Shown here: positions 4,676 through 25,377 of the stretch, piece after piece | Numbering within the stretch: position 1 is the first letter of the stretch | Layout: the number at the start of each line of letters is the position of its first letter | DNA from: Candidatus Bathyarchaeia archaeon | GTDB taxonomy: Archaea > Thermoproteota > Bathyarchaeia > 40CM-2-53-6 | NCBI GenBank assembly: GCA_049513715.1 | Contig: JBEKVV010000003.1 | Coordinates: 352,001-416,000 of the forward strand | DNA: 64,000 bases | Direction of reading: 5' to 3' | The notes under the pieces: generated by a model | Told to the model about the DNA's origin: nothing | What the model saw: the letters and a program-made list of their open reading frames with translations, nothing else | The model's database searches: none | Position numbers and translations under genes: made by a program

Positions 4676-5617
4676 TCAGAAAGGCGTGCCGCTGCCGACA
4701 TAGCACTTGATTTGATTTTGCTCGAAAATTCTGGCCACATGCATCATTTTGTCGTCCAAGGGAGCGGTGACGCTCCTGTACTTGTATTCCCAACCAAGCT
4801 GCTCGTACTTGGTTGTCCCTAACCTGTGAAAAGGAAGTAGGTTCACCTCCTTTTTCCTAATCTTCTTCATGAAAGTAGCCGTAGCTTTCATGTTCTCATC
4901 AGAGTCATTGAAACCAGGCACTACTGGAATACGGACGACAATTCTCGAATCGTTCCTTTGTGCGATTATGCCCTCTATGTTCTTGAGAATTAGCTCGTTG
5001 GTAACGCCTGTTCCTTCTCTATGCTTTTCTGGATCCATGTGTTTGATGTCAACGAAAACCCAATCAGCATAATTCAACGCTCTCTCCAAAATCTTTGGAG
5101 AAACATGCGCGCATGTCTCTATGGCTGTGTGAACGTAGGAATTGTAGAGCCTCTCAAGCATGGCAGTAGTGAATTCAGGTTGGGCTAGAGGTTCGCCGCC
5201 ACCGAACGTGACGCCGCCTCCTTGTCCCCAATAGGCCCTGTCTCTGGTCACGATCTCCATGGCTTCCTCTACGGTGACATCGCGGCCGACGACCCGTAGT
5301 GCTCCGTTGTAACAGCTGTTCACGCAGCTGAATTGGTGGCATTTTTCGCATTTTGACCAATCGAGGGTGATGGAATCTGCATTATTCGCCTTGCTGATAG
5401 CCCCGACGGGGCATGCTCCCACGCAGCTGTAGGTTTCTGCCTTGCATTTCCTTTGACTGTACATCAACTGAGGTTTGAACGATTGCCCTTCAGGGTTACA
5501 GCACCAGCTGCACTTGAGCGGGCACCCCTTCATGAAAAAGAGTGTTCTGCATCCGGGTCCGTCATGAACAGAGAAGCCCTGAACATCAAAAACAAGACCC
5601 CTCAGACTATGTGCCAT
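4676..5617 (-). CDS. Glycyl-radical enzyme activating enzyme (radical SAM with ferredoxin insert), HpdA-like
   Basis: HDGPG, GCPLKCSWCCNPEG (CxxxCxxC), Cys-rich ferredoxin insert, GGVTFGGGEP, IETC, VPGFND. Confidence 0.95.
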   Translation of the reverse strand: MAHSLRGLVFDVQGFSVHDGPGCRTLFFMKGCPLKCSWCCNPEGQSFKPQLMYSQRKCKAETYSCVGACPVGAISKANNADSITLDWSKCEKCHQFSCVNSCYNGALRVVGRDVTVEEAMEIVTRDRAYWGQGGGVTFGGGEPLAQPEFTTAMLERLYNSYVHTAIETCAHVSPKILERALNYADWVFVDIKHMDPEKHREGTGVTNELILKNIEGIIAQRNDSRIVVRIPVVPGFNDSDENMKATATFMKKIRKKEVNLLPFHRLGTTKYEQLGWEYKYRSVTAPLDDKMMHVARIFEQNQIKCYVGSGTPF

Positions 5618-5654
5618 GTTCGCTACGGACCCAGACCGTTCTTTGTAATCGACT

Positions 5655-5945
5655 TCACTCCCGGTCGTGTCGGGTTTTGGGCTCAGACTTCCACTCGAAT
5701 ATTTCGCATGTTCGTGTTCTGAGTTCGGGGAATGTCACGGTTATTCCTTTGCAGAGGCCCAGGGCATCAGTTTTGCTCGTGTAATTTGCGCAGAACTTAC
5801 ATTTCTTGGTTGGGACGCATTCAGTGCATGCATTTTCGTCTGTCAGAACGGAGCGCTTGTTGAGGTGACAGATTCCCTTGAAGACGTCTACTGGGGTGAA
5901 ATAGTCGCAGTCGCCACATTTCGAAACTTGGAGTTGTGTCAGCAT
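5655..5945 (-). CDS. Fe-S small subunit of GRE decarboxylase, HpdC-like
   Basis: Duplicated CxxC..GxC..C unit (CGDC..GIC..AC / CKFC..GLC..TC); lies between the GRE and its activase and abuts the GRE stop. Confidence 0.88.
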   Translation of the reverse strand: MLTQLQVSKCGDCDYFTPVDVFKGICHLNKRSVLTDENACTECVPTKKCKFCANYTSKTDALGLCKGITVTFPELRTRTCEIFEWKSEPKTRHDRE

Positions 5946-8687
5946 TTACATCAGCTCTTCGTATTCGGTTCGTGCGATGATCTCGTCCTGAATGGGTTTA
6001 GGAAGCTCTACCCAGTAATGGGTGAACCCGGCTACTCTGACGAGGAGGTCTCTGTAGTTTTCAGGATGAGCCTGGGCCTCCCTGAGCATCCTGGTGTCGA
6101 CCACATTGAACTGAATATGAAAGCCTCCCTTCCTCATGTATCCTCTAATCAGTTCGAGGAGTTTTCTTGCTCCTTCCCTTCCTCGAATTGCTGATGGATG
6201 TACCTTGAGATTCATCTGTGTGCACTGAGATTCAGAATGGTCGAAGCATGTGGCAGAGTTGAACAGGGCGTAGGGTCCATTGAGATCTGTACCGGGATAA
6301 GCGGATAAGGAAGCGTCAGCGTATGTGGTGCCGTGCAATCGTCCGTCAGGTGTGGCAATCGCTGCGGCTCCCATCGGACCATGAGTTGACACGGAAAGTT
6401 GAAGCGCATACAGTGGTTTGCCGTACAGGGATTTGTACTCGTGCGGGACCGAGCAGTAGAATTGCTCGAACGTCTTCAGGATTTCATCTGCGAAGGCATC
6501 ATCGTTTCCATATTTTGGTGCATTCAAACACCGGTAATGGGTCTCATTCCATTCTTGTGAAATTCTCTCTTGTTCCAGAAGTGAGTACGAGCCTACTTCT
6601 TCCGCGGTCTTGTACCCGAAATTACTGCGCAGTGCTTCTTTCAAATGATCGAGTGTCATCGATTTGTCTGTGTAAACGTTCTTTTTCAGCGAAGCCAGCG
6701 AGTTAACCAAGTTCATTCCGCCACAGATGTTGACGCTGAAGGTTCTGTTGTACCTGGACCCCAGCATCCCGATATGCATGCCTTTGTCGAGGCAATCGGG
6801 TTTCAATATTGAGTTGACTAATGGTGGGGTTAGTTTTCTCCAGATATCATGCTGGACATTGTTGCAGCGTATGAGGACGTCCATGATTCTTCTGAAATAG
6901 GCCTTGTATGCATCCCAGACTTCCTCGTAAGTCTCCAACTTGTAGCCGTGTGGCGGCAACACACGTCTACCTGTCCTCTGGTCAACTCCATCAAAGAGCA
7001 CTAGCTCAAGGATCTTTGGAAGGTTTAGGAAGTGGACTCCCACATCGGTTGCCGGTGCTGCCCCGCCTCTGGGAATAGTGTACTTCTTCCCGTTCAGTTC
7101 TAAGTCGACCCAAGTGCAGGCAGATGTCTGCAGGCAACCGCCTATAGCGACAGCCCTCGCTTCCTCCAGAGTCATTCCTTCTGGTCCGAAGTTCTTAAGG
7201 AGGAATTCTGTGGCAATTCGGTTGTTGACCCACGCAGGATAACCTGTCCCCGTCTTATTGCACTCAATGGCTTTCATGAGGAACTCTTCAGGCAATACCT
7301 CATCGTAGAGCAAGGTGAAGGTAGGTTGCGGGGTTTCGCAGGTGATACCAGATTCTATCATTAGCATTTCAAGTTCGTTTGCGGCGCTTTGACCGTCTTT
7401 TGTTAAGCCTCCCAAACTGACGTTGTTGAAGGTGCTTCCTGACTGTATTCCCTCAATGACGGATTTGGGTCCGAACAGGTCGATTTCGGTGAATTTCATT
7501 CTCATGCATTCTAGAAGCTCCATGGTTCGGTCTTGATCAATTCTCCCCGCGTCGACATCTTCCTTCCACCAAGGGTAGAGGACCTGCCCCAGCCTGCCCG
7601 GCGCTAAGCCAGAAAAATTGTCTTCGTTCAATACAGCGATGTGGAAAGTCCAGCACAACTGCAATGCCTCACGGAACGTCCGGGGCGGCTTTGATGATAC
7701 CCATTTCAGGATATCACGAATCTCTTCGTACTCTCTTCTCTGCTCCGGGTCCTTCTCTGTCCTCGCTAGTCTCTGCGCCTCGTCTGCAAAGTTGAGGATC
7801 CATTTCTTGATACCTTCGAGGATGATTGTTGCGGCTTTGTAGAAGTATAGGCGGTCCATTCCGTTTATTCCGTCATTCCCCGGATCGCCGCCGACTTCTG
7901 CCATCTTCTTCCTGCAAATCTCGATGATGCCGTCGATTCCGAATTGCAGGGGGTAGTAGTAGCTGATCACTTCCCTTCCTTGTGGTAATGTGTATCCTGA
8001 ATCGTACATGCAGACTAAGCTGCGCATTATCGCTTCTTTTTCGTCGTACCCCTGAACCAGCTGCTCATACTGATGCGAAACATCTTCGACGGACTTGTCA
8101 TCCCACATCGTGCTGATTTCTTTGAGGATTGGGAATTCCTCTTTTCTTAAACCGAATTTTCCTGCAATCGGAATTACGTTTCCAGTTGCGATGGTTACGT
8201 TGCCCCCGCCCTTCGCCACCTTTACTACTTCTTCAGCCGCCAGACCTCTCTTCTTAGCTTCCTCGTACCTCTTCTCAGTCTCGATAAGATAGGTTTGCGA
8301 CAGCCATGGCATGGGGAAGGACCCTCTCAAGTAAACAGTCCTCTCCATCACGAGCAGCTCTCCCTGGAAGATGCTTGGCGTTAGGTGGGAGTATGCGTAA
8401 CTGAGAGCCTTTGCCCTCCTGACTAGTGGAATCTCACCTTCAAGTTCATTCCATCTCCTCGTATACCAGTAAGGGAACTCAACGCTCGCTGAAGACTTTG
8501 TCTGGAGATAGCGGTCTCTGATGTTTCTGGCACGAAGGGTCGGTTGCTTCTTGGTTTCGCGCGACCCGATTTGCTCGGAAGCCTGTTTTCCGTATTGAAA
8601 GGATAGTTTGAGGCCTCTGCTCACTTTACTCTCCGCAAGTCTTTCATGCGTTTCCTTTTGCTTTGTTTCCTCTAACATTCCAATCAC
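5946..8687 (-). CDS. Glycyl-radical enzyme, 4-hydroxyphenylacetate decarboxylase (HpdB)-like large subunit with altered active site
   Basis: RVAGF glycyl loop (Gly887), GGCL Cys loop (Cys518), HpdB-type blocks GGGNVT, PQGREV, GRLGQVL, TFNN, GVHF, SVSTHGP. Start may be ATG 8678. Confidence 0.93.
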   Translation of the reverse strand: MIGMLEETKQKETHERLAESKVSRGLKLSFQYGKQASEQIGSRETKKQPTLRARNIRDRYLQTKSSASVEFPYWYTRRWNELEGEIPLVRRAKALSYAYSHLTPSIFQGELLVMERTVYLRGSFPMPWLSQTYLIETEKRYEEAKKRGLAAEEVVKVAKGGGNVTIATGNVIPIAGKFGLRKEEFPILKEISTMWDDKSVEDVSHQYEQLVQGYDEKEAIMRSLVCMYDSGYTLPQGREVISYYYPLQFGIDGIIEICRKKMAEVGGDPGNDGINGMDRLYFYKAATIILEGIKKWILNFADEAQRLARTEKDPEQRREYEEIRDILKWVSSKPPRTFREALQLCWTFHIAVLNEDNFSGLAPGRLGQVLYPWWKEDVDAGRIDQDRTMELLECMRMKFTEIDLFGPKSVIEGIQSGSTFNNVSLGGLTKDGQSAANELEMLMIESGITCETPQPTFTLLYDEVLPEEFLMKAIECNKTGTGYPAWVNNRIATEFLLKNFGPEGMTLEEARAVAIGGCLQTSACTWVDLELNGKKYTIPRGGAAPATDVGVHFLNLPKILELVLFDGVDQRTGRRVLPPHGYKLETYEEVWDAYKAYFRRIMDVLIRCNNVQHDIWRKLTPPLVNSILKPDCLDKGMHIGMLGSRYNRTFSVNICGGMNLVNSLASLKKNVYTDKSMTLDHLKEALRSNFGYKTAEEVGSYSLLEQERISQEWNETHYRCLNAPKYGNDDAFADEILKTFEQFYCSVPHEYKSLYGKPLYALQLSVSTHGPMGAAAIATPDGRLHGTTYADASLSAYPGTDLNGPYALFNSATCFDHSESQCTQMNLKVHPSAIRGREGARKLLELIRGYMRKGGFHIQFNVVDTRMLREAQAHPENYRDLLVRVAGFTHYWVELPKPIQDEIIARTEYEELM

Positions 8688-8695
8688 GTTCTAAT

Positions 8696-10981
8696 TCAGC
8701 AATATTCGGTCTTTCCTTCATTTAGGGCGGCCAGCACTTTGGCCGGTGATATTGGCAAGGACCTGAATCTGATGCCTATTGCGTCTTTTATCGCATTAGC
8801 TATGACTGGTGCCACCGGGTGCAATGATGCCTCGCTTATGCTCTTTCCTCCCACTCCAGATGGCTCGTTGGTTTCAACCAGTATTACTTGGGCTTCTGGC
8901 ATGTCTGAGACTGTAGGAATCTTGTAGTCCGTTAGGTTTGAATTGAGAACCCGTCCTCGTTCATCGAACTTCACTTCTTCCATCAAGGTCTGGCCGATTC
9001 CCTGCCCAATCGCGCCATACACCTGTCCTTTCGCTCCAGCCGGGTAGATTGCCTTCCCCAGATCTTGGGCCGCGACGTATCGGGTTACGAACACTTGGCC
9101 GGTGAGCATGTCTACATCTACTTCTGCGAAATGTGCTCCGAATGGTGGTGGATTGTCGGGCGGTTCAGCTGCCAGCGAGACGACCAAGCTCTTGTTTAGA
9201 TGGAATCTGGCAAACAGTCCAAGCTCTGAAAGAGGAAGGTGAACAGTGGGATCTTGTGTCGAGACCAGATGTTTGCCTTGAATCTTCAACGACTCGGGGT
9301 TCTTGTTCAGCATCTCTCCAGCTGCCTTAAGGACCTGTTCTCTCAGTTGTTCGCAGGCTGACTTTATGATACTACCAACAACATACGTCCCTCGACTGGC
9401 ATGGATCGCGCCTTCGAAAAGGGTTGTATCTGTATTGCCAGTCTCAAGGTCGATCATGTCGGCGTCGGTTCCGAGTGTTTCTTGCGCAATATTGCGATAT
9501 ACAGTGTGTTGGCCGCATCCCATGTCTATCGCGGCAGTTAGCACGATGAACTTTCCATCCTCATTGAACTTCACGGTCACGCCAGAATGCTCAATTATCT
9601 TTTCCACCGTTGACTTGGTTCCAGTTCCCGATCCTCTTATGGTCTGAAAAGCGACGCCCCTACCTCTTCTCCTGTTTGGATCAAGTGGCTGCTGAATCGG
9701 TTTACCCCATCCGAATGCTTCGCCTGCTCTTCTCGCCGATTCTTCCAGCCCACAAGAGTTAATCGTGTAGCCACTTCGGGGGTTCACGTCGCCAAGTTTG
9801 AATGAATTCTTGAGCCTGAATTCGATTTGGTCAAAACCCATTTTGTCTGCGATATCGGTCATCTGGCTTTCTATAGCGAAGGCACATTGTGCGCCACCGT
9901 ATCCTCTCATCGCTCCCGGAGAGTACGTGTTGGTGTAAGTTGCATAGGCTTCGAAAAGGCGGTGGGGAGCATTGTAAGCCGCATCAAAGTACATACCTCC
10001 AACGATTGCAACGCTTGGCCCATGCGTCGCGTAGGCTCCTGTGTTGGCAACACATTTGCAGTAACGAGCAGTGATCGTTCCATCCTTCTTGACTCCTGTC
10101 TTAATCGTCAGGCGCATGTCATGCCGCGAGGTCGTGACGAAGACCTCAGATCTGTTAAGCCCAAGCCTCACAGGCTTCCGAGCCTTCCCCGCGAGAAGGG
10201 CGCAAATCGGTTCAACATCGCTCATCTGCAGTTTTGATCCGAAAGAACCTCCCAGGTATGTGTTGTGGACCCTTATCGTAGAGACCGGGAGAGCTAGAGC
10301 TTCAGACAGGCGTTCCCTCAGAAGGAATATACTCTGGGTTGATGACCAAATGTTCAGCTTCCCTTTCTCATCCCAGTGAGCGATCGCACAATGGGCCTCA
10401 AGCGGAACTTGGTTCTGCCTCTGCGTTCTGTATTCGTCCTCAAAAATCTCATCAGCGAGTCGAAAACCTTCGTCGATGTTACCATAGCGTATGCTCATGG
10501 GGTTGCCGCCCTTGGCATCCCATGCCTCGGCGACATTCGACTTCAACTCAGTCCTTACTTTTGGTGCGCCTGGTTTGAGTGCTTCAACTGGGTCTGTAAC
10601 ATACGGTAAGTTCTGATAATCGACATGGATTCTCTCTGTTGCCTCCTCAGCCAATTCCTGAGAAGTCGCTGCTACCGCCGCAATTGGTTCGCCGACGTAG
10701 CATACCTCCTTCCTCATAATCGATTTATCTTTGGGCAGAAGGCCGGCTTCGGGGTACGGGGCGTTGAAAATCGGGTTGTACCTCGTATCGGGCACGTCGG
10801 CAAATGTAACGATGGCCTTGACGCCTTCCAACTTCAAGGCCTCTGACGTGTCAATTGATTTTAGTATGGCATGGGGTTTGGTGCTTCTCAGAATCGCACC
10901 GTATAGCATCCCTGGAAGCTGCATGTCCGAGGTAAACTTCAGCTTTCCAGTTACCTTCTGAACAGCCTCAACTCTCGACAA
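8696..10981 (-). CDS. Xanthine dehydrogenase-family Mo-cofactor large subunit
   Basis: KVTG N-terminus, STQS, GGSFGSK, AMRGYG, ASRG, DYKIPT, KSISE (catalytic Glu). Confidence 0.92.
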   Translation of the reverse strand: MSRVEAVQKVTGKLKFTSDMQLPGMLYGAILRSTKPHAILKSIDTSEALKLEGVKAIVTFADVPDTRYNPIFNAPYPEAGLLPKDKSIMRKEVCYVGEPIAAVAATSQELAEEATERIHVDYQNLPYVTDPVEALKPGAPKVRTELKSNVAEAWDAKGGNPMSIRYGNIDEGFRLADEIFEDEYRTQRQNQVPLEAHCAIAHWDEKGKLNIWSSTQSIFLLRERLSEALALPVSTIRVHNTYLGGSFGSKLQMSDVEPICALLAGKARKPVRLGLNRSEVFVTTSRHDMRLTIKTGVKKDGTITARYCKCVANTGAYATHGPSVAIVGGMYFDAAYNAPHRLFEAYATYTNTYSPGAMRGYGGAQCAFAIESQMTDIADKMGFDQIEFRLKNSFKLGDVNPRSGYTINSCGLEESARRAGEAFGWGKPIQQPLDPNRRRGRGVAFQTIRGSGTGTKSTVEKIIEHSGVTVKFNEDGKFIVLTAAIDMGCGQHTVYRNIAQETLGTDADMIDLETGNTDTTLFEGAIHASRGTYVVGSIIKSACEQLREQVLKAAGEMLNKNPESLKIQGKHLVSTQDPTVHLPLSELGLFARFHLNKSLVVSLAAEPPDNPPPFGAHFAEVDVDMLTGQVFVTRYVAAQDLGKAIYPAGAKGQVYGAIGQGIGQTLMEEVKFDERGRVLNSNLTDYKIPTVSDMPEAQVILVETNEPSGVGGKSISEASLHPVAPVIANAIKDAIGIRFRSLPISPAKVLAALNEGKTEYC

Positions 10982-11100
10982 AGGAACACCAATCTAATGA
11001 GCTAATTTCCGGCCCTAGGATATTGGTTTTCTACTAGTTATCTATGTTCTATTTTCTATTTCGTTAAGTATAATGGTCCGAGTAGATAGAAGGACCGTCT

Positions 11101-11979
11101 ATGAGGGCAACAGTACCATTAGTTGACTATTACACTCCAAAGACAGTCGCGGAGACCGTGAGACTTCTCACGAAGCTGGAAAAAGCCAGCATTTTGGCTG
11201 GTGGGACGGATTATGTTCCTGCAACTAGGATGAAGGGATTCAGGCCGAAGAATCTAGTCTCATTGAAAAACCTCGGAAAGCACCTGCGCTATATTTCCTT
11301 CAAGAATGGGGTCATTAAGATTGGGGCCCTCACACGAATGAGGGATATAGAGAAATCGGAAGTAATACGGAAGCATGCGCCCCACCTTTACGAGGCAGCA
11401 GCGCAGGTGGGAGCCATCCCGATTAGGAACAGGGCTACGCTCGGAGGGAACCTATGTAACGCCAGTCCGGCCGCTGATACTGCTCCTCCATTGCTGACGC
11501 TGGACTCTGTCGTTGAGATTGTTGGACCTCGCAAGAAAAGAACCGTTTCCATCGACGACTTCTTTGTGGGCGTTGGAAAAACTGTATTGAAGAAGGGCGA
11601 GATTGTGAGCGGGATCTCGTTTCGACCGTGGAAGGGGGGCTTCGCATTCATGAAGATTGGGCGACGGCAGGGTGAGGATATTGCAGTAGCATCGGCAGCT
11701 GTTTCAATCAAGATGAAGGGCGAGAAGATTTCGGATGTGAAGATAGCTCTGGGAAGTGTTGCTCCAACACCCATTAGAGCACGTAAAGCAGAAGCCGACT
11801 TGTTTGGGAAAGAGCCAACCAAGGAAGCATTGGAATCTGCAGCCAGGAAAGCTGCGGAGGAATCTAGCCCCATAGATGATGTTAGAGCCAGCGCTGACTA
11901 TCGTAGGAAAATGGTAAAAGTACTGGTAACATCGACTCTCTCACAGGCAGTTAAGAAAGCAAAGGGTGATTCATCATGA
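11101..11979 (+). CDS. Xanthine dehydrogenase-family FAD (medium) subunit
   Basis: LAGGTD, IRNRATLGGNLCNASPAAD, PIDDVRASADYR. Confidence 0.93.
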   Translation: MRATVPLVDYYTPKTVAETVRLLTKLEKASILAGGTDYVPATRMKGFRPKNLVSLKNLGKHLRYISFKNGVIKIGALTRMRDIEKSEVIRKHAPHLYEAAAQVGAIPIRNRATLGGNLCNASPAADTAPPLLTLDSVVEIVGPRKKRTVSIDDFFVGVGKTVLKKGEIVSGISFRPWKGGFAFMKIGRRQGEDIAVASAAVSIKMKGEKISDVKIALGSVAPTPIRARKAEADLFGKEPTKEALESAARKAAEESSPIDDVRASADYRRKMVKVLVTSTLSQAVKKAKGDSS

Positions 11980-12458
11980 ACATAGATCTCAAAATTAACG
12001 GTGAAACCGTTAGGCTGGACATACCGCCAAACGAAATTCTGCTGGACACACTGAGAACCAGAATTGGTTTGACCGGCACCAAAGATGTGTGCAGGACGGG
12101 AGATTGCGGGGCCTGCACTGTGCTGGTTGATGGTGAAGCCGTACACTCATGCTTGGTATTGACAGTCGAAGTCCATGGATCCAGAATTCTTACGGTGGAG
12201 GGACTTGCCGAGAACGACAAGCTCCACCCATTGCAGCAGGCGTTTATTGAAGAAGACGCCACACACTGCGGGTACTGCACACCAGGAATTTTGATGGCTG
12301 GCGTGGCGTTGCTTAATGAAAACAGCAACCCCAACCGTAGCGACGTTGAGGAGGCATTGAAAGGAAACCTATGCCGGTGCGGGACCTACTATGACGCAGT
12401 AAACGCCATTCTGAAGGCTAGCCAGAAGATTGGAAAGAGCAAATCGAAGACTCACTGA
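11976..12458 (+). CDS. Xanthine dehydrogenase-family 2Fe-2S (small) subunit
   Basis: CRTGDCGACT..SC, CGYCTPG, NLCRCG; ATGA overlap with the FAD subunit gene. Confidence 0.95.
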   Translation: MNIDLKINGETVRLDIPPNEILLDTLRTRIGLTGTKDVCRTGDCGACTVLVDGEAVHSCLVLTVEVHGSRILTVEGLAENDKLHPLQQAFIEEDATHCGYCTPGILMAGVALLNENSNPNRSDVEEALKGNLCRCGTYYDAVNAILKASQKIGKSKSKTH

Positions 12459-12515: not shown

Positions 12516-13976
12516 ATGGCAGATTTGATTCTGAAGAATGGAAAACTCGTCCTACCTTCCGGCGTAATGGAGGGGGGTGTTTCAATCGCGGATGGAGTCA
12601 TAGAGAAAATCGCGAAGGATGCAAATCTCCCAAAGGGTGACAAGGAAATCGATCTGCAGGGCAAATTGGTTCTCCCTGGAGCAGTTGATATCCACACGCA
12701 TCCTGGGGGGAAACATCCACTCGGTGACGACTTCAAAACAGAGACTCCAGGCGCGTTGATGGGAGGCGTCACTACAATGGGCGGAATAGTCCGGGTTCCC
12801 AGAATGGGGCAACCGTTCAAAGAGGACACGGACCCCGCGGAGGTTGTGTCATGGTTTGACGTTTTTGAGTTGGGTAAGAGAACTGCTCAGACGAATTCTT
12901 GCGTCGACTTCTTCTTCATCTTCACTTTGAACTCGATGCAACACGCTGAGGAAATCCCCAAGTACGTTCGAGAGCTGGGTGTTGCAGCTTTCAAGTATCA
13001 TGGAAACCTGAAGAACTTAGCAGACCACCCTATGGGACAAAAGTGGGCAAGGAGAATGGCGTTGCCTGCACCTTACGATGACAGTCTCGCCTTCCGCGCC
13101 ATGGAACAGGTGGGAAAGACAAAGAAGGCGATTCTACTACTGCACTGTGAGAACTCAGAGATATCGAAGCTATTCAGAGAACGCGTGAGGTCGCAGGGAA
13201 GGGCGGATCCTGAAGCATGGACTGAAACTCTACCGGGCTTCTTGGAAGCTGAACACGTCAGGAGATACTCGTACCTTGCCAAAGCGACTGGCGCCCCAAT
13301 TCATGTGGTGCACATAACTTCGCGCGAAGGCCTTGAGGAAACGTTTGAGGCGAAGAGCCAAGGAGTCAAACTAACGGTCGAGACTTGCCCGCAATACTTG
13401 ATGGTAGACCCCGCGAAAGCGGGATACTTGGGCAAACTCAACCCTCCTCTCCGAAAACAGGAAGACCGAGAAGCACTCTGGAAAGGTGTGAAGGATGGGT
13501 GGGTCGATTCGATTGGGACGGACCATGTGGTGAGCAACAAATACGAAAAACTGGTTTGGGGAGACGGCGCACCTCCCGGAGGAGACCCTGCCTCAAACAT
13601 ATGGTTCACCGGTTCTGGAAGCGTAGGCACACAAACGATGCCCATAACGATGTTCTGGGAGGGTTACGGTAAAAGAGGGATGTCCCTCAGCAGATTGGTT
13701 GAACTAATCTCCACAAACCCCGCAAAAATTGTGAGAATATACCCGAAGAAGGGCGTCATTGAGACTGGCTCGGATGCCGACCTGATGATAATCGACCAGC
13801 AGAAAGAAGGTAAGATTACGGCCGAGTGGATCAAATCCTATGGAGATTTCACCCTCTTCGAAGGAATGACAGGGAAAGGATGGCCATACATGACTATCCT
13901 CAGGGGGCAAATCGCAATGCAGGAAGGAGACCTGCAGGTAAACCCAGGGTACGGCCAATTCGTGAGATGCGTATGA
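12516..13976 (+). CDS. Cyclic amidohydrolase (dihydropyrimidinase/hydantoinase/allantoinase family)
   Basis: DIHTH, FK (carbamylated Lys), HCEN, VVHITS, ETCPQYL, NPPLR, GTDH, GSDADL. Confidence 0.88.
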   Translation: MADLILKNGKLVLPSGVMEGGVSIADGVIEKIAKDANLPKGDKEIDLQGKLVLPGAVDIHTHPGGKHPLGDDFKTETPGALMGGVTTMGGIVRVPRMGQPFKEDTDPAEVVSWFDVFELGKRTAQTNSCVDFFFIFTLNSMQHAEEIPKYVRELGVAAFKYHGNLKNLADHPMGQKWARRMALPAPYDDSLAFRAMEQVGKTKKAILLLHCENSEISKLFRERVRSQGRADPEAWTETLPGFLEAEHVRRYSYLAKATGAPIHVVHITSREGLEETFEAKSQGVKLTVETCPQYLMVDPAKAGYLGKLNPPLRKQEDREALWKGVKDGWVDSIGTDHVVSNKYEKLVWGDGAPPGGDPASNIWFTGSGSVGTQTMPITMFWEGYGKRGMSLSRLVELISTNPAKIVRIYPKKGVIETGSDADLMIIDQQKEGKITAEWIKSYGDFTLFEGMTGKGWPYMTILRGQIAMQEGDLQVNPGYGQFVRCV

Positions 13977-15437: not shown

Positions 15438-16664
15438 GTGAAGACCGAGGAACCTGAGAAGAGTGTGCTGAGCAAGATCAAAAGCGAAGACGTGATCAGC
15501 CTTACCCAACAGCTTATCAGAATACCCAGCCACAGAAATTGTGAAGGACAGGAAAAACAAATCGCGGAGTTCATCGCGGACGCGTTAGAGACGATTGGCG
15601 CCGAAGTCTCGCTGCAAAGGGTCGTCAATGACCGATTCAATGTCATTGGAAAGATTTCGGGCGAGGCTGACGGTCACAGCTTAACTTTGACCGGCCATTT
15701 GGACACCGTGCCAGCGGGTAATATGGAAATAGAGCCCTTTGCCGGCACCATACGTGACGGCAAAATCTACGGGAGAGGGGCTTCAGACATGAAAGGCGCA
15801 TTGGCAGCGATGATTTGTGCTCTGCGAGCAGTGAAGGAATCTCATGTGCACCTAAAAGGCGACCTAGTCTTCGTTGGCGCAATCGGAGAAGAAACAACAA
15901 GCGAAGGTACCACGTATCTCGTAAGAAATGGCCCGAAGACCGATTTTGCGATCAATGGCGAGCCAACCAATATGGACCTGGCGGTCGCGCACAAAGGCTC
16001 AGTACTCATTCAAATAACTGCAAGCGGGAAGGCCGCCCATTGTGACACACCCTGGCTCGGAATAAACGCCGTAGAAAAGATGAGCAAGATTGTTCAAACG
16101 ATAGCAGACCGAGTACCAAACGAACTAAAACAGAAGACTCACAAGTACACCGGACCGCCGACAATCAACATAGCCTACATCAGTGGAGGCGAATGGCCCT
16201 ACACAGTCGTACCGGACGAATGCAAAATAGTAATCATAACAGGACTCCTGCCAGAGGAAAAAAGAGAATCAATACCGTTACTGTATGAGAGAATTATTAA
16301 GGAATTGCAGACCCACGACCGCGAGCTTTGCGCAAAGGTCGACATCATACCTATTGAAACAATACCGGAGGGGTATAACCTGTCTTTTGAGATACCGGAA
16401 TCTTCACCGATTGTCAAGTCGTTAAAGCATTGCGCGATGCGAGTACTTGGCACGGGGCCCAAATTGGTCGGCGTTCCTTACTGGTGCGACGCGTCGATTC
16501 TCTCCTATGCTGGCGTTCAGACAATCATTTTTGGTCCAGGTAATATCGGCGTCGCTCATTCATCGGTGGAATACGTTCCAGTGAAGGACCTGATTAACTC
16601 ATCAAGAGTGTACGCTTTGTCAGCGCTCGATATATGTCAGCGCGATAGAAGCCCGATGAAGTGA
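15438..16664 (+). CDS. M20 family metallo-amidohydrolase (ArgE/DapE/YgeY-like)
   Basis: GHLDTV, YGRGASDMKG, GEE, GEPT, AH..P..GINA, FGPG..AHS. Confidence 0.9.
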   Translation: MKTEEPEKSVLSKIKSEDVISLTQQLIRIPSHRNCEGQEKQIAEFIADALETIGAEVSLQRVVNDRFNVIGKISGEADGHSLTLTGHLDTVPAGNMEIEPFAGTIRDGKIYGRGASDMKGALAAMICALRAVKESHVHLKGDLVFVGAIGEETTSEGTTYLVRNGPKTDFAINGEPTNMDLAVAHKGSVLIQITASGKAAHCDTPWLGINAVEKMSKIVQTIADRVPNELKQKTHKYTGPPTINIAYISGGEWPYTVVPDECKIVIITGLLPEEKRESIPLLYERIIKELQTHDRELCAKVDIIPIETIPEGYNLSFEIPESSPIVKSLKHCAMRVLGTGPKLVGVPYWCDASILSYAGVQTIIFGPGNIGVAHSSVEYVPVKDLINSSRVYALSALDICQRDRSPMK

Positions 16665-16699: not shown

Positions 16700-18118
16700 T
16701 TAGGGAGCTCTAGAGCGCCAAGGTCTGTTCTTGAGGTTTGAAATACCCGAAATCTCCACGAGCTCATCCGCAGCGGCTCTGCCTTCGCCCAGAATTTCAT
16801 CTTCATCAACCGTAATCAACCTCCTTCCCCTCATTAGGATTTGTCCGTCGACGATCGTCGTGTCTATGTTTTCGCTCGTGGCGCTGTAGACCAACGCTGA
16901 AACGGGGTTGTGGGCGGGTGCAGCGAAAGTTTTTGATAGGTCGATTAGAAACAAATCGGCCTTCTTTCCTGGTTCAATCGAGCCGACTTCATGCTCAAGT
17001 CGAAGAGCCCTGGCCCCGCCAATTGTCGCCATTTCAAGAACATCTTCTGCAGTAATGATTGTGGGGTTGCCAGGGTGAGCAACCTTGTGCAAAAGCGCCG
17101 TAACCTTAACTAACTGCAGCATGTCCTGGTTATTGTTGCTCGCTGCGCCGTCCACGCCCAAGCCGACGGTTATGCCTGATTTTAGCATTTTTGGGATAGG
17201 AGCTACTCCTGACGACAGGTACATGTTACTGGTGGCATTGTGGGACACCTTGGAGTCCGATTTCTTCATGATTCCAATGTCGTCATCGTCGAGATAGACG
17301 CAGTGAACCGCCAAGAAGTCAGGTCCGAGAAGTCCGATCCTGTCAAACAACTCCAGTTCCCTGCAATGAAAGCGGGACCTGCAGTTCTCAACCTCAAACG
17401 GTGTTTCTGCAACATGCATCGTTATCCCTATTTTCAATTCGTCTGCCAGTCTTCTGCAGCCTTTCAGTGCCTGCTCGGTGACACCCCAAATTGCAACTGG
17501 AGCGATCCAAACTCCCAGTCTCCCGTTGTGATTCGCTGCGAACTTGCGATGCATGCGTCGAATCTCGTTGAACGATTCATCTGAGTTGTGGATGATTTCG
17601 GAGGGCAAACCTACCTCAAGCCCAGTGTCGATGACTCCATGACCGACGATCCCTCGAATGCCTGATTCTTGAAACGCTAGAAGTACTGCCTCCGATAGTT
17701 CGGGAACGGGATGTGCGTACATGTAGTCCAACGTTGTGGTCGTGCCGGATTTGATGGCCTCAACGACTCCGAGAAGGGCGCTGGCGTGAACATGTTTATA
17801 GGTTAGTTTGCGGGAGCTCGGAACAATTATCGTCCTTATCCAGTCCGCTAAGACTCGATCATCGCCTAACCCTTTGAGCATGACTTGAAATAGATGGGTG
17901 TGGGTGTTGACAAACCCCGGGAACACGGTTTTCCCGTTTGCCTCTATCACTTCGTCGGCCCTTGGGTGGCTTTCAATAACCTCCCTAGTTGGGCCGACAG
18001 CGCGAATGCGATTGCCCTCAACGTAGACCGCGCCGTTCCTGATGATGTTTCGCTTCGGACTTACAGTAACGACTGAATCTGCATTTCTAATGAGTATGCT
18101 GGATGCCTTTAACGGTAC
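16700..18118 (-). CDS. Amidohydrolase, MTA/SAH deaminase/SsnA/8-oxoguanine deaminase-like (start codon unresolved)
   Basis: PGFVNTHTHLFQ, HVAET, AVHC, GVDG. Frame stays open from 17950 up to 18118 and encodes the family N-terminus (SILIRNA..VVTV..GAVYVEGNRIRAVG) with no ATG/GTG/TTG. Confidence 0.85.
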   Translation of the reverse strand, partial: VPLKASSILIRNADSVVTVSPKRNIIRNGAVYVEGNRIRAVGPTREVIESHPRADEVIEANGKTVFPGFVNTHTHLFQVMLKGLGDDRVLADWIRTIIVPSSRKLTYKHVHASALLGVVEAIKSGTTTTLDYMYAHPVPELSEAVLLAFQESGIRGIVGHGVIDTGLEVGLPSEIIHNSDESFNEIRRMHRKFAANHNGRLGVWIAPVAIWGVTEQALKGCRRLADELKIGITMHVAETPFEVENCRSRFHCRELELFDRIGLLGPDFLAVHCVYLDDDDIGIMKKSDSKVSHNATSNMYLSSGVAPIPKMLKSGITVGLGVDGAASNNNQDMLQLVKVTALLHKVAHPGNPTIITAEDVLEMATIGGARALRLEHEVGSIEPGKKADLFLIDLSKTFAAPAHNPVSALVYSATSENIDTTIVDGQILMRGRRLITVDEDEILGEGRAAADELVEISGISNLKNRPWRSRAP

Positions 18119-18150: not shown

Positions 18151-19080
18151 TTATTTCTTGAATGGTTTGCCCAAGAACTCTGGAGCTGCTGCATGTCTTC
18201 CCGCTATTGCAAGAACGGCGATTACAAAGATGTAGGGCAGAGCGTTGAAGAATTGTGGAGGTAGCGGAACCTTGAGTGCTTGGAGAAGATAGTCAAGGGC
18301 CTGCATTCCACCAAAGAAAAAGCATCCAAGAGCAGTACGAAGTGGACGCCATTTGCCAAAATAGACTAGGCCGATGGCAATGAATCCAGTACCGGAAATA
18401 ATTGGCGTCGCTGTATAGATCTTCACGAGCGCAATAGCGATGTACCCTCCTGACAAGGACGCAAGAATGCTGCCGACAATCACGCTCACGTACCTAACCA
18501 AGTTGACATTGGATCCCATAGCGTAGGCCGCGTGCGGATTTTCACCTGCCGCCACAATCCGCAAGCCAAGGGGAGTTTTGAACAAACAAAATACTACCAC
18601 GATTAGGATGATAGCCGCATAGGTGAGGGCAGTCTGCGAGAACAAAGCTTCTCCAATGACAGGGATGTCGGCCAAGATCGGAATTCTGATATCCGGCATT
18701 CCCGAAACTTGAGGTTGCACGGAAGCGACTCCGAAGACCACCCGGTACAAAAAGAAAGTTATACCCAAACCCGCGAAGTAAACCCCCAGTCCAGCTAAGA
18801 TCTGATCCTGCATTAGCGTTATCGTGAGCGGAGCTACGACGAGCCCCACAAGGGCGCCAGCTACGATTCCTCCTATGAGACCGAAGGCCAAACTGCCATT
18901 GAAGTAAACGATTGTAAACGACACAAAAGAGCCCAGAACCATGATGCCCTCTAAGCCCAGATTGATTATTCCTGCCCTTTCCACGATGACCTCACCAAGG
19001 GAACTCAGAAGAAGCGGTGTCGCGAACACGAGCGTTCCTGAAATCAAATAGGTTACGGCTTCAAACGCCACCAGAATCAC
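18151..19080 (-). CDS. Nucleoside-type ABC transporter permease
   Basis: ERAGIINLGLEG, GLRI.AAGENP, FIAIGLVYFGKWRP, LGKPF; hydrophobic. Confidence 0.9.
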   Translation of the reverse strand: MILVAFEAVTYLISGTLVFATPLLLSSLGEVIVERAGIINLGLEGIMVLGSFVSFTIVYFNGSLAFGLIGGIVAGALVGLVVAPLTITLMQDQILAGLGVYFAGLGITFFLYRVVFGVASVQPQVSGMPDIRIPILADIPVIGEALFSQTALTYAAIILIVVVFCLFKTPLGLRIVAAGENPHAAYAMGSNVNLVRYVSVIVGSILASLSGGYIAIALVKIYTATPIISGTGFIAIGLVYFGKWRPLRTALGCFFFGGMQALDYLLQALKVPLPPQFFNALPYIFVIAVLAIAGRHAAAPEFLGKPFKK

Positions 19081-20144
19081 CTGACTACAACACGGTAATT
19101 CACGAAGAATTCGAAAATCAGTAGAGTCAGTATCATTAACGCTTCTAGGAATGTGATAACGCCAATGGAAATTCCCGCCTGTTCCATGAATTGGGCGCCA
19201 TTCAGCAGCCCGGCGAACCCAAGCGCCGCTGGAATGCAGTAGAGTGGATTCAACTTCGCCAGCAGGGCCACGACTATTGCTAAGAATCCGTACCCAGCCA
19301 ATGACGAGCCCGAAAAGCCAAGCAAAAGGAAATGCTGTACACCACTAACTTCCATCATGCCTGCCAAGCCGCTCATGCCACCTGTTAGAAGTGAGGTCAG
19401 GACAACTGTCTTCGCAATGCTAATACCGCTATAGCGGGCTGCACGTATATTGTACCCTACAACTCTGATATTGTAACCGATACGTGTGTGCCAAAGCAAA
19501 AAGTAGAACACGAAGGCAAGAAGAAACGGTAAGACGACTCCAACATGGAGACGCGTGCCTGGTATCATGTTGGGAAGCTGTGCATTCAAGCCAAGGATCC
19601 GAGTCTCCGGGTATAGAGCGGCTGGGTCCTTCCAATTGTAGTAAAGCAGATACTCAAGAAAATACCCAGCGACGAAATTCGCGAGTATGGTAACAATAAT
19701 CTCGTTTACGTTTAGGTAAGCCTTCAGCATTCCAGCTACAAGAGCAAATAACCCGCCAAAAATCACACCGAACAGTATCATTAATGGAATCAGTATTACC
19801 GCTGGCAGATTTGGAAGAGATAGCGCTACCCATGTCGCCCCGATCCCCCCAAAGATGAACTGCCCGTCTGCTCCGATGTTGTAGAAGCTCGCCCGAAAGG
19901 CGACAGAAAGTCCAACTGCGATGGCCAGCAAAGTGGAGCACTTGAGTAAGGTCTCAGATAATGAAGTCACATTGCCAACGGCGCCGTAAATCAGAAGGCC
20001 ATACGCTTCTCGTACGTTGACGTGCAAGTACACCATTATGATCGTCGTTATTGCAAGCGAACTGGCCAGCGCCAGAATGGGTGTTAGCCCTCGAAGATAT
20101 GGGCTCACGTCCCCTTTAGGCTGGATTTCGAAGCGTCTCTGCAA
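19077..20144 (-). CDS. Nucleoside-type ABC transporter permease
   Basis: YNIGADGQ, NEIIVTI, GYN.RAARYSGI, GYGF.AIVVALL. Confidence 0.9.
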   Translation of the reverse strand: MQRRFEIQPKGDVSPYLRGLTPILALASSLAITTIIMVYLHVNVREAYGLLIYGAVGNVTSLSETLLKCSTLLAIAVGLSVAFRASFYNIGADGQFIFGGIGATWVALSLPNLPAVILIPLMILFGVIFGGLFALVAGMLKAYLNVNEIIVTILANFVAGYFLEYLLYYNWKDPAALYPETRILGLNAQLPNMIPGTRLHVGVVLPFLLAFVFYFLLWHTRIGYNIRVVGYNIRAARYSGISIAKTVVLTSLLTGGMSGLAGMMEVSGVQHFLLLGFSGSSLAGYGFLAIVVALLAKLNPLYCIPAALGFAGLLNGAQFMEQAGISIGVITFLEALMILTLLIFEFFVNYRVVVR

Positions 20145-20146
20145 GT

Positions 20147-21670
20147 TTAGTGCCCAGTCTTGGAGCCTAACGTCATCATATACCCCAGAGTCTCGACAGG
20201 AGTGTTGGATGGCACTATGTCAACAATTCTTCCCTTATAGATGACTCCGATTCGAGTACCAAGCTCTCGAATCTCATCTAAATCCTCGCTTACCAATAGA
20301 ATTGCAGAGCCCGTTTCGGAAACTGCTCTTAGTCTTGAACGTATGCGGGCCGTTGCGGCCGCATCGAGACCGTGCGTGGGATTAACCGCGATCAGAAAGT
20401 TAGTGTCTTTCTTCAATTCGCGCCCAACAACCATTTTCTGGATATTTCCGCCAGAGAGAGTTTTGACTTCGCTGCGGACACTGCTGGCCTTGATGTTGAA
20501 TTGGTCCACAAGATCCTTTGCGAAGCCGAGTATACGGCCAACTTGCAATTGGCCCATGCGAGTGGTAAATTTCCCAATTTCCAGATAGCCCATAACTGCG
20601 TTTTCATATAGACGCATATCAACAACGGCACCGGTCGCCATGTCTTCAGGAATAAAGGCTAACCCTTCTTTGAGCCGTGTCGTGACAGAGGCGTTGGTGA
20701 TATCGAGGCCGTTCAACATGATCTTTCCTTTAGTCGCTTTGCGTAGACCTGAGAGCGCCTCAACCATTTCCTTCTGGCCGTTTCCTGACACACCGGCGAT
20801 CCCTAGAATCTCGCCGTCCTTGATTTCGAACGATATATCTTCGAAGGCAGGCAAACCGTTGTCGCGAAAGGCGCATAAACGTGATACTTGTAGGACATCC
20901 TTACGCAGAATATCGGATTTCGACACTGTCTGTGTCTGCCGTTCGTTGAGAGGCGAATAATCGGCGAACATATGAGCAATGAGTCTCTCCTTCGACTCTT
21001 TCGCCGTTCCCTCCCATACCTTCTTGCCCCGACTAAGCACAGTCACGGTGTCGCTTATTCGTTTCGCCTCGTCAATCTTGTGGCTGATGAAGACGACGCT
21101 CACGCTTTCGTTTTTCAGACTTAACAATGTTTGGAAGAATGGTTCGATTTGTTGCGGTGTCAGTACTGATGTTGGCTCATCTAAAATTAAGATAGATGCG
21201 TGCCGAAAGAGGGCTTTCAGTATCTCAACGTGCTGTTGCTCGGCGGCCGACAATTGCCAAATGTATGCTTCTGGATCAATTGAAAAACCGAATTTTTTCG
21301 CAAAATCCACGATTTCTTCTTTTATGTTGTGATGAGCATAGTCCTCCTTTATCCCGAGGCTAAGCAGGAAGTTCTCGTAGACTCTCAAATTGCGAATTAG
21401 AGAGAAGTGTTGGTGGACCATGCTAATACCCTGCGCGGCCGCGTCACGAGGAGAACGGAAGCGGACGCTTGTATCGTGTATCAGGATTTGTCCATCATCG
21501 GGTGCGAAGTAACCGCTCAAGATATTCATGAGGGTTGTCTTGCCAGCACCATTTTCGCCTAATAGAGCGTGGATTTCACCCTCGCGTAGGGAGAAATCCA
21601 CGTCGGCAAGAGCCTGGACTTGAGGGAAGCTCTTTGTTATGTGCTGCATCTCTAACTTGAGATGCGGCAC
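20147..21670 (-). CDS. Nucleoside/sugar ABC transporter ATPase (two NBDs)
   Basis: GENGAGKT Walker A, LILDEPT, LSGGNIQK, SEDLDE. Confidence 0.93.
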   Translation of the reverse strand: MPHLKLEMQHITKSFPQVQALADVDFSLREGEIHALLGENGAGKTTLMNILSGYFAPDDGQILIHDTSVRFRSPRDAAAQGISMVHQHFSLIRNLRVYENFLLSLGIKEDYAHHNIKEEIVDFAKKFGFSIDPEAYIWQLSAAEQQHVEILKALFRHASILILDEPTSVLTPQQIEPFFQTLLSLKNESVSVVFISHKIDEAKRISDTVTVLSRGKKVWEGTAKESKERLIAHMFADYSPLNERQTQTVSKSDILRKDVLQVSRLCAFRDNGLPAFEDISFEIKDGEILGIAGVSGNGQKEMVEALSGLRKATKGKIMLNGLDITNASVTTRLKEGLAFIPEDMATGAVVDMRLYENAVMGYLEIGKFTTRMGQLQVGRILGFAKDLVDQFNIKASSVRSEVKTLSGGNIQKMVVGRELKKDTNFLIAVNPTHGLDAAATARIRSRLRAVSETGSAILLVSEDLDEIRELGTRIGVIYKGRIVDIVPSNTPVETLGYMMTLGSKTGH

Positions 21671-21715
21671 GGTCAGTGTGCCTCAGGCCTGGAAAGTAGG
21701 GAGGGTAGGCTCCGT

Positions 21716-23862: not shown

Positions 23863-23891
23863 CCATCTGAGTTCTCTTCGGCGAACTGGTT

Positions 23892-25199: not shown

Positions 25200-25377
25200 C
25201 TGGCCTTAATCCGTCCTGTTTGTTGTTCATGAATGAGGGAGGCTGGATAATAGTTTTGAGATAAGAAAAGGCAAGCGGCAAATGGGCGGAAAGAATAACT
25301 TTTACTCCACAGAAGAACGATTGTGACTCTTCTGATTCGTATAGAGAAATCAAAATCGAGCAATTGAGGTTATTTGA

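Follow-up and report, generated by a model that had tools for sequence, protein, structure and literature searches.

We analysed a stretch of 64,000 nucleotides (hereafter the window) from contig JBEKVV010000003.1 of a Candidatus Bathyarchaeia archaeon (assembly GCA_049513715.1; 2.79 Mb in 11 contigs). In this window, the genes of a glycyl radical enzyme (GRE) resembling 4-hydroxyphenylacetate decarboxylase (HPAD) adjoin the genes of a molybdenum enzyme of the xanthine dehydrogenase (XDH) family and of two amidohydrolases. Genes were called from the list of open reading frames (ORFs) together with Pfam and NCBIfam profile scans of the window proteins. The core of the locus is laid out as follows:

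4676..5617, minus strand: HpdA-like glycyl-radical activating enzyme; 313 residues; Pfam Radical_SAM and Fer4_12
5655..5945, minus strand: HpdC-like, Cys-rich small (gamma) subunit; 96 residues; Pfam 4HPAD_g_N; NF033716 63.3 bits, cutoff 50
5946..8687, minus strand: HpdB, HPAD-like GRE large subunit of what we call the 'Q/N' clade; PFL-like and Gly_radical; 913 residues (GTG 8687) or 910 residues (ATG 8678)
8696..10981, minus strand: XdhL, XDH-family molybdopterin-binding large subunit of an orphan orthogroup; 761 residues, TTG start; Ald_Xan_dh_C, MoCoBD_1 and MoCoBD_2
10982..11100, unstranded: divergent xdhL-xdhM intergenic region; 119 nt, AT-rich, with TTATAC-type TATA-like boxes
11101..11979, plus strand: XdhM, FAD-binding medium subunit; 292 residues; FAD_binding_5 and CO_deh_flav_C
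11976..12458, plus strand: XdhS, [2Fe-2S] small subunit; 160 residues; Fer2 and Fer2_2; 4-nt overlap with xdhM
12516..13976, plus strand: Hyd1, cyclic amidohydrolase (rare orthogroup) resembling hydantoinase/dihydropyrimidinase; 486 residues
13970..15379, plus strand: Amido2, amidohydrolase of ATZ/TRZ, SsnA and deaminase type; ~467-469 residues; Pfam Amidohydro_1

An earlier note on this DNA had described a minus-strand gene order L-B-C-A with an 8-nt gap, a divergent gap of 119 nt, and M and S subunit genes leading into hydrolases; the ORF and profile evidence bears out this anatomy. The gap from the xdhL stop to the hpdB start is 8 nt if HpdB begins at GTG 8687 and 17 nt if it begins at ATG 8678, the start implied by a 910-residue database entry (P0001). 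The listed Amido2 frame starts at 13826, 150 nt inside Hyd1 (13826-13975), and its real start is probably ATG 13970 or 13976, judging from homology and from the 4-nt overlap with Hyd1 of an ortholog in a distant locus (L099). HpdC carries nine cysteines and one histidine (C10, C13, C26, H27, C40, C43, C49, C52, C65 and C80), a pattern that fits the two [4Fe-4S] clusters given for the HPAD gamma subunit in excerpts of a 2026 review (PMC13450708). HpdA scored 408.6 bits on the HPAD activase model NF033717, just under its cutoff of 420, and 344 bits on TIGR02494 (cutoff 174); its orthologs, 65-68% identical, come after hpdC in related loci.

The large subunit reached 1365.2 bits on NF033715, the HPAD large-subunit equivalog (cutoff 1150), a model that does not split off the Q/N clade, and 743 bits on the model for indoleacetate decarboxylase (IAD; cutoff 1100). 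It aligned to HPAD from Clostridium scatologenes (2Y8N) with an E-value of 4e-292 and ~58% identity over nearly the full length. In 2Y8N numbering, derived here from alignment offsets, HpdB retains the radical glycine G873 (motif RVAGF), the thiyl cysteine C503, S344 and H536. At the positions of E505 and E637, it has Gln (Q520) and Asn (N653). Among the best 120 homologs, 114 carried both glutamates (E/E), six carried the Gln/Asn pair (Q/N), and none was mixed; the radical glycine and thiyl cysteine were kept in all 120. The same genome encodes a second, distant GRE on another contig (G000:C5:147605-149362, locus L002), a 791-residue open frame that is 36% identical.

We compared 13 Q/N sequences with 114 E/E sequences and found 22 clade-specific columns, each holding a residue present in at least 92% of Q/N members (100% in 20 columns) and in at most 3% of E/E members. 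These changes include F214Y, S347A, W498V, E505Q, E637N, C748L, I750L and N808C, a set of loop changes (A391G, M393K, G397E, V399I, L400Q and N403S), and S/G532D, which sits four residues before H536. Their net effect in the Q/N clade is the loss of two acidic residues, the gain of E412, D548 and the lysine K408, and the exchange of a hydrophobic ring contact for Gln. The clade was monophyletic with support 1.0 (MAFFT alignment, FastTree). In excerpts of the 2026 review, Glu637 is proposed to deprotonate the phenol of 4-hydroxyphenylacetate and Glu505 to reprotonate Cys503 in a Kolbe-type mechanism (PMC13450708), and part of a further source places Leu400 and Glu637 at the substrate ring (PMC6181972). 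The other clade-specific positions may line the substrate pocket. Residue changes of this kind would be expected if the substrate had a ring of higher polarity that forms hydrogen bonds, or if it bore additional charges. With both proposed catalytic glutamates replaced, HpdB is, as judged from its residues, not a canonical HPAD; by the same measure its active site is a new one on the known HPAD scaffold, and would suit a non-phenolic, probably heterocyclic, substrate. Annotation pipelines will call the Q/N protein a 4-hydroxyphenylacetate decarboxylase, and the p-cresol potential read from such names in metagenomes may mislead for this clade.

We consider it improbable that the enzyme still decarboxylates 4-hydroxyphenylacetate, or a close phenolic compound, to p-cresol, with Gln and Asn tolerated mechanistically. 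The score on NF033715 (1365 bits, cutoff 1150), a small subunit above its own cutoff, and the retention of H536, S344, C503 and G873 would all agree with such a function. So would two statements in excerpted sources: neither Glu505 nor Glu637 has been probed by mutagenesis (PMC13450708), and phenylacetate decarboxylase (PAD) accepts 4-hydroxyphenylacetate though it lacks Glu637 (PMC13598205). However, both glutamates are present in 114 of 114 E/E homologs and neither is present in any of the 13 Q/N sequences, and the ring-facing Leu400 has become Gln. The Cys-loop Glu is also reported to be essential in IAD (excerpts of PMC13450708), and the gene context is one of heterocycle hydrolysis, not tyrosine fermentation.

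A GRE that no longer acts as a decarboxylase at all, having turned for example to C-N or C-O cleavage or to ring chemistry on a non-aromatic cyclic ureide, seems to us very improbable. Both proposed acid/base residues are replaced, the new E412 and D548 lie in motifs near the active site, and the range of GRE reactions is described as expanding (PMC13450708, in part), all of which would suit a change of reaction. Yet the protein is ~58% identical to HPAD over nearly its full length, the carboxylate-binding Ser344 is kept, and so is the gamma subunit, a type of subunit that, in the excerpts of the same review, is so far known for HPAD and X-succinate synthases alone. Because the radical glycine, the thiyl cysteine, the carboxylate-binding serine and the gamma subunit are all retained, we suppose that the enzyme still cleaves aryl-CH2-COO- to aryl-CH3 and CO2.

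HPAD itself (HpdBCA of C. scatologenes and Clostridioides difficile; 2Y8N, 2YAJ) is likewise encoded by a unit of three genes, for a large subunit, a Cys-rich gamma subunit and a radical-SAM activase. The window clade differs from it in the Q/N pair at 505/637 and the other fixed changes, in its archaeal host, and in its XDH and amidohydrolase neighbours. Four GRE decarboxylases are named in the excerpted 2026 review, HPAD, PAD, IAD and arylacetate decarboxylase (AAD), all acting on amino-acid-derived aryl-acetates (PMC13450708). IAD, PAD and AAD are GREs that cleave aryl-CH2-COO-, as the window GRE probably does, and IAD and PAD also lack Glu637, with Leu616 at that position in IAD (excerpts of PMC6181972 and PMC13598205). 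Unlike the window GRE, these three have no gamma subunit (PMC13450708, whose excerpts state this for AAD), and IAD retains the Cys-loop Glu, reported there as essential, where the window GRE has Gln. No molybdenum-enzyme partner is reported for IAD, PAD or AAD in the excerpts of the sources compared.

We gathered relatives of the GRE from genome contigs (80 loci) and metagenome contigs (74 loci), and scored each locus with the window proteins. Fifteen are Q/N loci (L006 and L086-L099), of which L086 is the window, while L006 and L088 are the same region as that in a second genome, G036; the 139 others are E/E wherever the residues are readable. Upstream sequence of 2.5 kb or more before hpdB is available for ten distinct Q/N loci; L089, L090, L097 and L098 break off too early. 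In eight of these ten (the window, L087, L088/L006, L091, L092, L093, L095 and L096), XdhL is encoded directly upstream of hpdB on the same strand, with XdhM-XdhS-Hyd1-Amido2 divergent, a count that overstates independence, since L087-L096 are 92-100% alike by tree and identity matrix. The confirmed independent lineages with this arrangement number three, namely the window, L088/G036 and the L087-L096 group; the GRE P0002, with XdhL P0124 and Hyd1 P0243, is a probable fourth, the three entries sharing a longest contig of length 50371. Not one of the 93 non-Q/N loci with at least 2.5 kb upstream, out of the 139, has XdhL there, and an XDH subunit of any kind occurs in a single one of the 139 (L055, Moorella), as a 33% identical S-M-L set ~8 kb downstream. 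The linkage between XdhL and this GRE is beyond chance. The earlier note had linked the molybdenum large subunit with the GRE and stated that characterised hpdBCA operons are not known to have such a partner, and the gene neighbourhoods (8/10 against 0/93) support it on each count. The canonical E/E operons (L007-L085, L100-L159) extend well beyond Clostridia, with hosts labelled as Bacteroidales, Prolixibacteraceae, Acidobacteriaceae, Anaerolineae, Lentisphaerae, and archaeal Methanomicrobiales and Thermoplasmata metagenome-assembled genomes.

A distant locus, L099, is organised differently. Its GRE is 63% identical to that of the window, and one strand encodes an allantoinase-like protein, Hyd1 (68%), Amido2 (62%), a Bmp binding protein, two permeases, an ATPase and hpdB-hpdC-hpdA, followed by a UbiD decarboxylase (30% identical to the window's) and a flavodoxin-like gene. 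Because L099 keeps the hydrolases and the transporter without an XDH, the two amidohydrolases and the transporter, not the molybdenum enzyme, are the most constant partners of the GRE. In L094, a truncated ADH, a tungsten AFOR, a class-III aminotransferase, an ECF transporter and an IS110 transposase stand in place of the XDH, and the locus looks rearranged. Mobile-element genes lie beside module copies in L094 (IS110-family transposase) and L092 (16261-17763, rve integrases), and a truncated ADH_N fragment immediately precedes hpdB in L094, the features of L094 lying at 1378-2160 and 9619-9981; all this fits recent rearrangement and lateral movement. The GRE of L089 is 100% identical to that of L087, and the sequence downstream of it differs (an AFOR fragment, CN_hydrolase, UbiD and DUF1611), which points to strain-level shuffling around the same GRE. 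The downstream genes of L089 also include a different XdhM/XdhS pair (10915-12352), 36-44% identical to the window's.

The three proteins are also rare, and they are rare together. A scan of 60 relatives placed the Q/N GRE in 2 of 61 genomes, the window genome and G036 (76% identity). An XdhL ortholog was found in the same 2 of 61 (74% in G036, the next best match being 42%), and a Hyd1 ortholog in the same 2 of 301 genomes of the class (300 sampled; 72% in G036, next best 41%). In a collection of 5.8 billion proteins, the XdhL orthogroup comprised 10 clusters at 67-100% identity, after which identity fell to 44%; that of Hyd1 comprised 11 clusters at 58-100%, and 53 proteins in total reached E<=1e-60. 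The Q/N GRE group, with six of the best 120 homologs, is of a similarly small size. XdhL, Hyd1 and the Q/N GRE behave as one rare accessory module.

The L/M/S set of the molybdenum enzyme is complete, with the molybdenum cofactor, FAD and 2x[2Fe-2S] domains of Pfam present across XdhL, XdhM and XdhS. XdhL, 34% identical to Escherichia coli XdhA, gave its best NCBIfam match to XdhA (NF043082, 591.3 bits), below the cutoff of 780, and scored 393.9 on PucD against a cutoff of 783.65. Its best PDB match was the alpha subunit of 4-hydroxybenzoyl-CoA reductase (1e-97), and it also matched PaoC, MOP and glyceraldehyde-dehydrogenase models with E-values of 1e-89 to 1e-114. Its TTG start lies in a context, CCTTGTC, that is conserved in related loci, where orthologs of XdhM (54-59% identical) and XdhS (70-74%) occupy the same place. 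We considered 4-hydroxybenzoyl-CoA reductase as a reductive dehydroxylase model for XdhLMS and rejected membership in it: the alpha, beta and gamma models scored 503, 116.6 and 157 bits against cutoffs of 994.55, 404.55 and 257.8, and XdhM has 292 residues against 321 in the profile. The beta subunit of that reductase is enlarged by the insertion of an extra Fe-S cluster, for which a 292-residue XdhM has no room. We also dropped active-site typing by the substrate-binding Glu802 of bovine/Rhodobacter XDH: XdhL has Leu in the presumed column (motif GGSFGSKLQ), and E. coli XdhA, aligned with it and with paralogs, has Gln, so that the column is not conserved even there and is not diagnostic.

The XDH family includes aldehyde oxidoreductases, and the matches to PaoC, MOP and glyceraldehyde-dehydrogenase models leave room for a different scheme, which we hold to be quite unlikely. 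An amine or amino acid would be transaminated, the resulting (hetero)aryl-acetaldehyde oxidised by XdhLMS or AFOR, and the acetate decarboxylated by the GRE, as in histamine to imidazole-4-acetate to 4-methylimidazole, with the amidohydrolases acting on the product or on something else. An AFOR gene within a few kilobases of the GRE in L087, L088, L092, L093 and L094, and as a fragment in L089, would fit, as would the class-III aminotransferase beside the L094 GRE. The window likewise has a class-III aminotransferase (248-1486) and a Zn-ADH (3602-4615) just past hpdA. But the aminotransferases of the window and L094 are just 29% identical, and the window has no AFOR. XdhL scores higher on the XdhA and 4-hydroxybenzoyl-CoA reductase models than on any aldehyde oxidoreductase model, and it is Hyd1 and Amido2 that accompany the GRE most constantly, rather than an enzyme that makes aldehydes.

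Hyd1 scored 261 bits on TIGR02033 (cutoff 393), with L-hydantoinase as its best PDB match (1GKR, 4e-57), and the metal-ligand motifs are present by eye (HTH 60-62, K160, H210, H266 and D336). Its orthologs, 68-74% identical, occur in every Q/N locus that extends that far, L099 included. Amido2 scored 170-171 bits on the NCBIfam SsnA models (cutoffs 444/455), with atrazine chlorohydrolase as its best PDB match (2e-38), and its orthologs (62-72%) adjoin Hyd1 in related loci. Beyond Amido2, the window continues with further hydrolases and a transporter:

15438..16664, plus strand: M20 deacylase, ArgE/DapE/YgeY-like, a looser member; 408 residues; TIGR01910 267 bits, cutoff 217.6
16700..17950, minus strand: Amido3, a second ATZ/TRZ- or deaminase-type amidohydrolase; 416 residues; called from Pfam/NCBIfam
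18151..22762, minus strand: Bmp/PnrA-type ABC transporter with two permeases, a fused ATPase and a binding protein; BPD_transp_2 twice, ABC_tran twice, Bmp
23038..26199, unstranded: CN_hydrolase, UbiD-family decarboxylase and CN_hydrolase; called from Pfam and NCBIfam

The M20 protein scored 191.8 bits on YgeY (cutoff 321), and its gene was not found beside the module in the other loci compared. Homologs of Amido3 in L087 and L088 are only 35-37% identical. A Bmp transporter of the same kind lies between Amido2 and hpdB in L099, and the two binding proteins are 31% identical. The CN_hydrolase-UbiD-CN_hydrolase genes are probable accessory members of the same catabolic island.

The spacers of the module bear on whether its genes are transcribed together. 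Alignment with five related loci revealed a CTCTTATAC box that the relatives conserve ~30 nt ahead of the TTG start of xdhL. It resembles CCTTATACC, an element conserved ~55-60 nt before the hpdB ATG in the relatives' xdhL-hpdB spacer, and both may be archaeal TATA boxes. The hpdBCA genes probably have their own promoter in these relatives. In the window alone, the spacer has shrunk to 8-17 nt, and co-transcription of xdhL and hpdB is likely there. The description of XdhL in the earlier note as heading the GRE operon therefore agrees with the gene order and the 8-nt gap of the window, but it may hold only there, the relatives having spacers of 178-191 nt with a TATA-like box. A recurring (C)CTTATAC(C) precedes xdhL and hpdB in the relatives (L087 6999-7211, L088 9287-9490, L092 9471-9687 and L093 7801-8013, and the xdhL-xdhM intergenic regions), and a CCTTATTAG-like element on the opposite strand precedes xdhM; such elements may represent a shared promoter/operator architecture under the adjacent TrmB-family regulator. 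The xdhL-xdhM region of the window has ~60 extra nt compared with the relatives. A scan for sigma-70 promoters and terminators gave 6 promoter-like sites against 10.7 expected from shuffles and is uninformative, the models being bacterial and the host archaeal. No Rfam family reached its gathering score in the window, L087, L088 or L099, and there is hence no riboswitch clue to the ligand.

Around the module, genes for N-heterocycle catabolism recur from locus to locus in shuffled order. After hpdA, the relatives encode a divergent TrmB-family regulator (L087, L088, L089, L092, L093 and L094), two isochorismatase-family hydrolases (L087, L088 and L092), a PTPS/QueD-like protein (L087, L088 and L093), CN_hydrolase (L087, L088 and L089), UbiD (L089), and AFOR (L087, L088, L092, L093 and L094, with a fragment in L089). 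The UbiD and second CN_hydrolase of the window are 70% and 80% identical to the pair downstream of the L089 GRE. Beyond 26199, the window encodes a ParB-like protein, a TrmB regulator and more amidohydrolases, among them an allantoinase (31339-32778; TIGR03178 360.4 bits, cutoff 357.85) that is 56% identical to the first gene product of L099. Further on are AllG/AllH, an FdrA-like CoA-ligase protein, a second Bmp ABC transporter, two XDH trios and a methylmalonyl-CoA mutase. The genes of an anaerobic allantoin branch (29691-30947, 31339-32778 and 53774-57755) comprise the allantoinase, two AllG-like, one AllH-like and one FdrA-like (oxamate carbamoyltransferase-type) member, and they point to purine/ureide catabolism in a Bathyarchaeon. 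The two extra XDH trios are complete L-M-S sets in tandem on the plus strand (42726-46413 and 46584-50383); both fall under the XdhA cutoff of 780, at 548 and 480 bits, and the large subunit of the methylmalonyl-CoA mutase (50483-52105) directly follows the second.

In such surroundings, the neighbours need not share a substrate: a p-cresol-type decarboxylase operon might have landed in a purine/heterocycle island and travelled with it as a block. We judge this unlikely. The island is dense, with three XDH trios; mobile elements adjoin some loci (IS110 in L094, rve in L092), the order around the core is shuffled between genomes, and a promoter-like box of its own seems to precede hpdB in the relatives, all as mere adjacency would have it. 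Yet the catalytic and pocket residues of the GRE changed along with the association, and the orthogroups of XdhL and Hyd1 match the GRE clade both in rarity and in distribution. L099, though distant and differently ordered, moreover retains the link to Hyd1 and Amido2, and 0 of 93 ordinary loci have XdhL upstream.

Two known systems offer precedents for parts of the module. In the anaerobic indoleacetate (iaa) pathway of Aromatoleum/Azoarcus, which Ebenau-Jehle and colleagues are said to have described in 2012, a molybdenum hydroxylase reportedly forms a 2-oxo lactam that a hydantoinase-like enzyme opens to (2-aminophenyl)succinate. That hydantoinase reportedly belongs with the ATP-dependent HyuA/B enzymes and not with the metal-dependent cyclic amidohydrolases. 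The later steps are CoA-dependent (excerpts of PMC8360864), and the carboxyl is lost via CoA esters, a B12 mutase and a decarboxylating acyl-CoA dehydrogenase, with no GRE. The reductive uric acid cluster of E. coli and C. difficile (XdhD-YgfM/YgfK/SsnA/HyuA/YgeY/YgeW/YgeX) brings an XDH homolog, SsnA, a hydantoinase and an M20 enzyme to bear on one purine without O2 (excerpts of PMC12507026). This pathway has no GRE, and Amido2, Hyd1 and M20 of the window do not reach the cutoffs for SsnA, D-hydantoinase and YgeY. Among the annotated window ORFs, we saw no reductase of the YgfK/UacX type and neither YgeW nor YgeX.

On balance, we lean slightly towards reading the locus as a rare Bathyarchaeia module, probably laterally spread, for the O2-free breakdown of an N-heterocycle via an oxo/amino-heteroaryl-acetate, with a rebuilt HPAD-type GRE at its centre. 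From the gene content, the conserved linkage, the co-distribution and the changed residues, we infer its chemistry, substrate class and order of steps as follows. The polar retooling of the active site, together with the constant cyclic amidohydrolase and deaminase-type amidohydrolase, suggests that the ring is an oxo/amino N-heteroaryl; an aniline-type substrate is disfavoured, because hydrolytic deamination is not feasible on a benzene ring. Uptake would fall to the Bmp-type ABC transporter, possibly with the compound in nucleoside form. XdhLMS would hydroxylate a carbon beside a ring nitrogen, with water as the oxygen source, and Hyd1 would hydrolyse the resulting lactam, exposing a heteroaryl-acetate. 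The GRE would then remove the carboxyl carbon, breaking a C-C bond beyond the reach of hydrolases, after which Amido2 would deaminate the product and downstream hydrolases would complete the breakdown. Organisms like the host of L099 could take up the lactam directly, which would make an XDH dispensable.

Several observations weigh against this reading. The GRE lies above the NCBIfam cutoff for HPAD and may thus act on 4-hydroxyphenylacetate, no ring-dearomatising reductase was seen in the module, and hydantoinase-type enzymes usually require a non-aromatic ring. The linkage stands on few independent lineages; L099 has no XDH within 10 kb upstream or 4.6 kb downstream, and L094, whose GRE is 77% identical, has none with 10 kb of upstream sequence. 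From the xdhL stop to the hpdB start there are 178-191 nt in L087, L088, L092 and L093, and the window, being a mosaic island, could bring together heterocycle genes that have nothing to do with one another. Finally, the stretch was found in 24 DNA sequencing runs (peat and wetland metagenomes, from which it possibly came) and in no RNA run.

The earlier note had proposed a relay of hydroxylation and radical decarboxylation on one heterocycle, with hydrolytic ring opening last. Its functional link, and a retooled active site that would fit a heterocyclic substrate, find support here, but the most constant partners of the GRE are hydrolases and not the molybdenum enzyme. The order that we favour, hydroxylation, lactam hydrolysis and then decarboxylation, follows the logic of the anaerobic indoleacetate pathway and would fit at least as well as the order of the note. 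The latter could also operate, for example from imidazole-4-acetate to 4-methylimidazole, its 2-oxo form and cyclic-urea hydrolysis. Candidate substrates of the GRE, in no particular order, are 6-aminouracil-5-acetate (from 7-deazapurines), uracil-5-acetate (from xcm5U nucleosides), imidazole-4-acetate, hydroxypyridyl-acetates, and (2-aminophenyl)acetate/succinate.

The first of these leads to a more specific idea, to which we give little credence: that the module supplies the missing route by which 7-deazapurines (archaeosine, queuosine, preQ0, CDG and deazapurine nucleoside antibiotics) are catabolised. Such compounds are barred from normal purine breakdown by the carbon, C7, that replaces N7. 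The Bmp transporter and a phosphorylase would deliver the base, and CN_hydrolase and UbiD would strip the C7 nitrile, amide or carboxyl. A deaminase would then give 7-deazaxanthine, which XdhLMS would hydroxylate at C8, as XDH does on xanthine, and Hyd1 would open the oxindole-like lactam to 6-aminouracil-5-acetate. The Q/N GRE, with its Gln and Asn reading the uracil lactam edge, would release as CO2 the carboxymethyl carbon, which could not be cleaved off otherwise, and Amido2 would deaminate the 6-amino-5-methyluracil. What suggests this route is the presence of the gene families, including the PTPS/QueD-like gene by the GRE in L087, L088 and L093; each of its steps is conjectural. Variants of the same logic could start from uracil-5-acetate (cm5U/ncm5U of eukaryotic tRNA), imidazole-4-acetate or oxindole-3-acetate.

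Full-text term searches of the main texts in a limited literature collection turned up neither an HPAD-type GRE carrying Gln/Asn at 505/637 nor any pairing of a GRE and an enzyme of the XDH family. The gene partnership of GRE and XDH, conserved across several lineages, thus appears to be undescribed. If our reading is right, the Q/N enzymes would be a fifth type of GRE decarboxylase, and an HPAD scaffold that works without both glutamates would directly test the Kolbe-type mechanism against hydrogen-atom transfer, a choice that is in dispute. Radical decarboxylation would be extended to the catabolism of N-heterocycles, and the combination of a water-dependent molybdenum hydroxylase with a GRE would be a new O2-free way of dismantling heterocycles. 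For the uncultured Bathyarchaea of peat and wetlands, the module would define a concrete and testable substrate niche.

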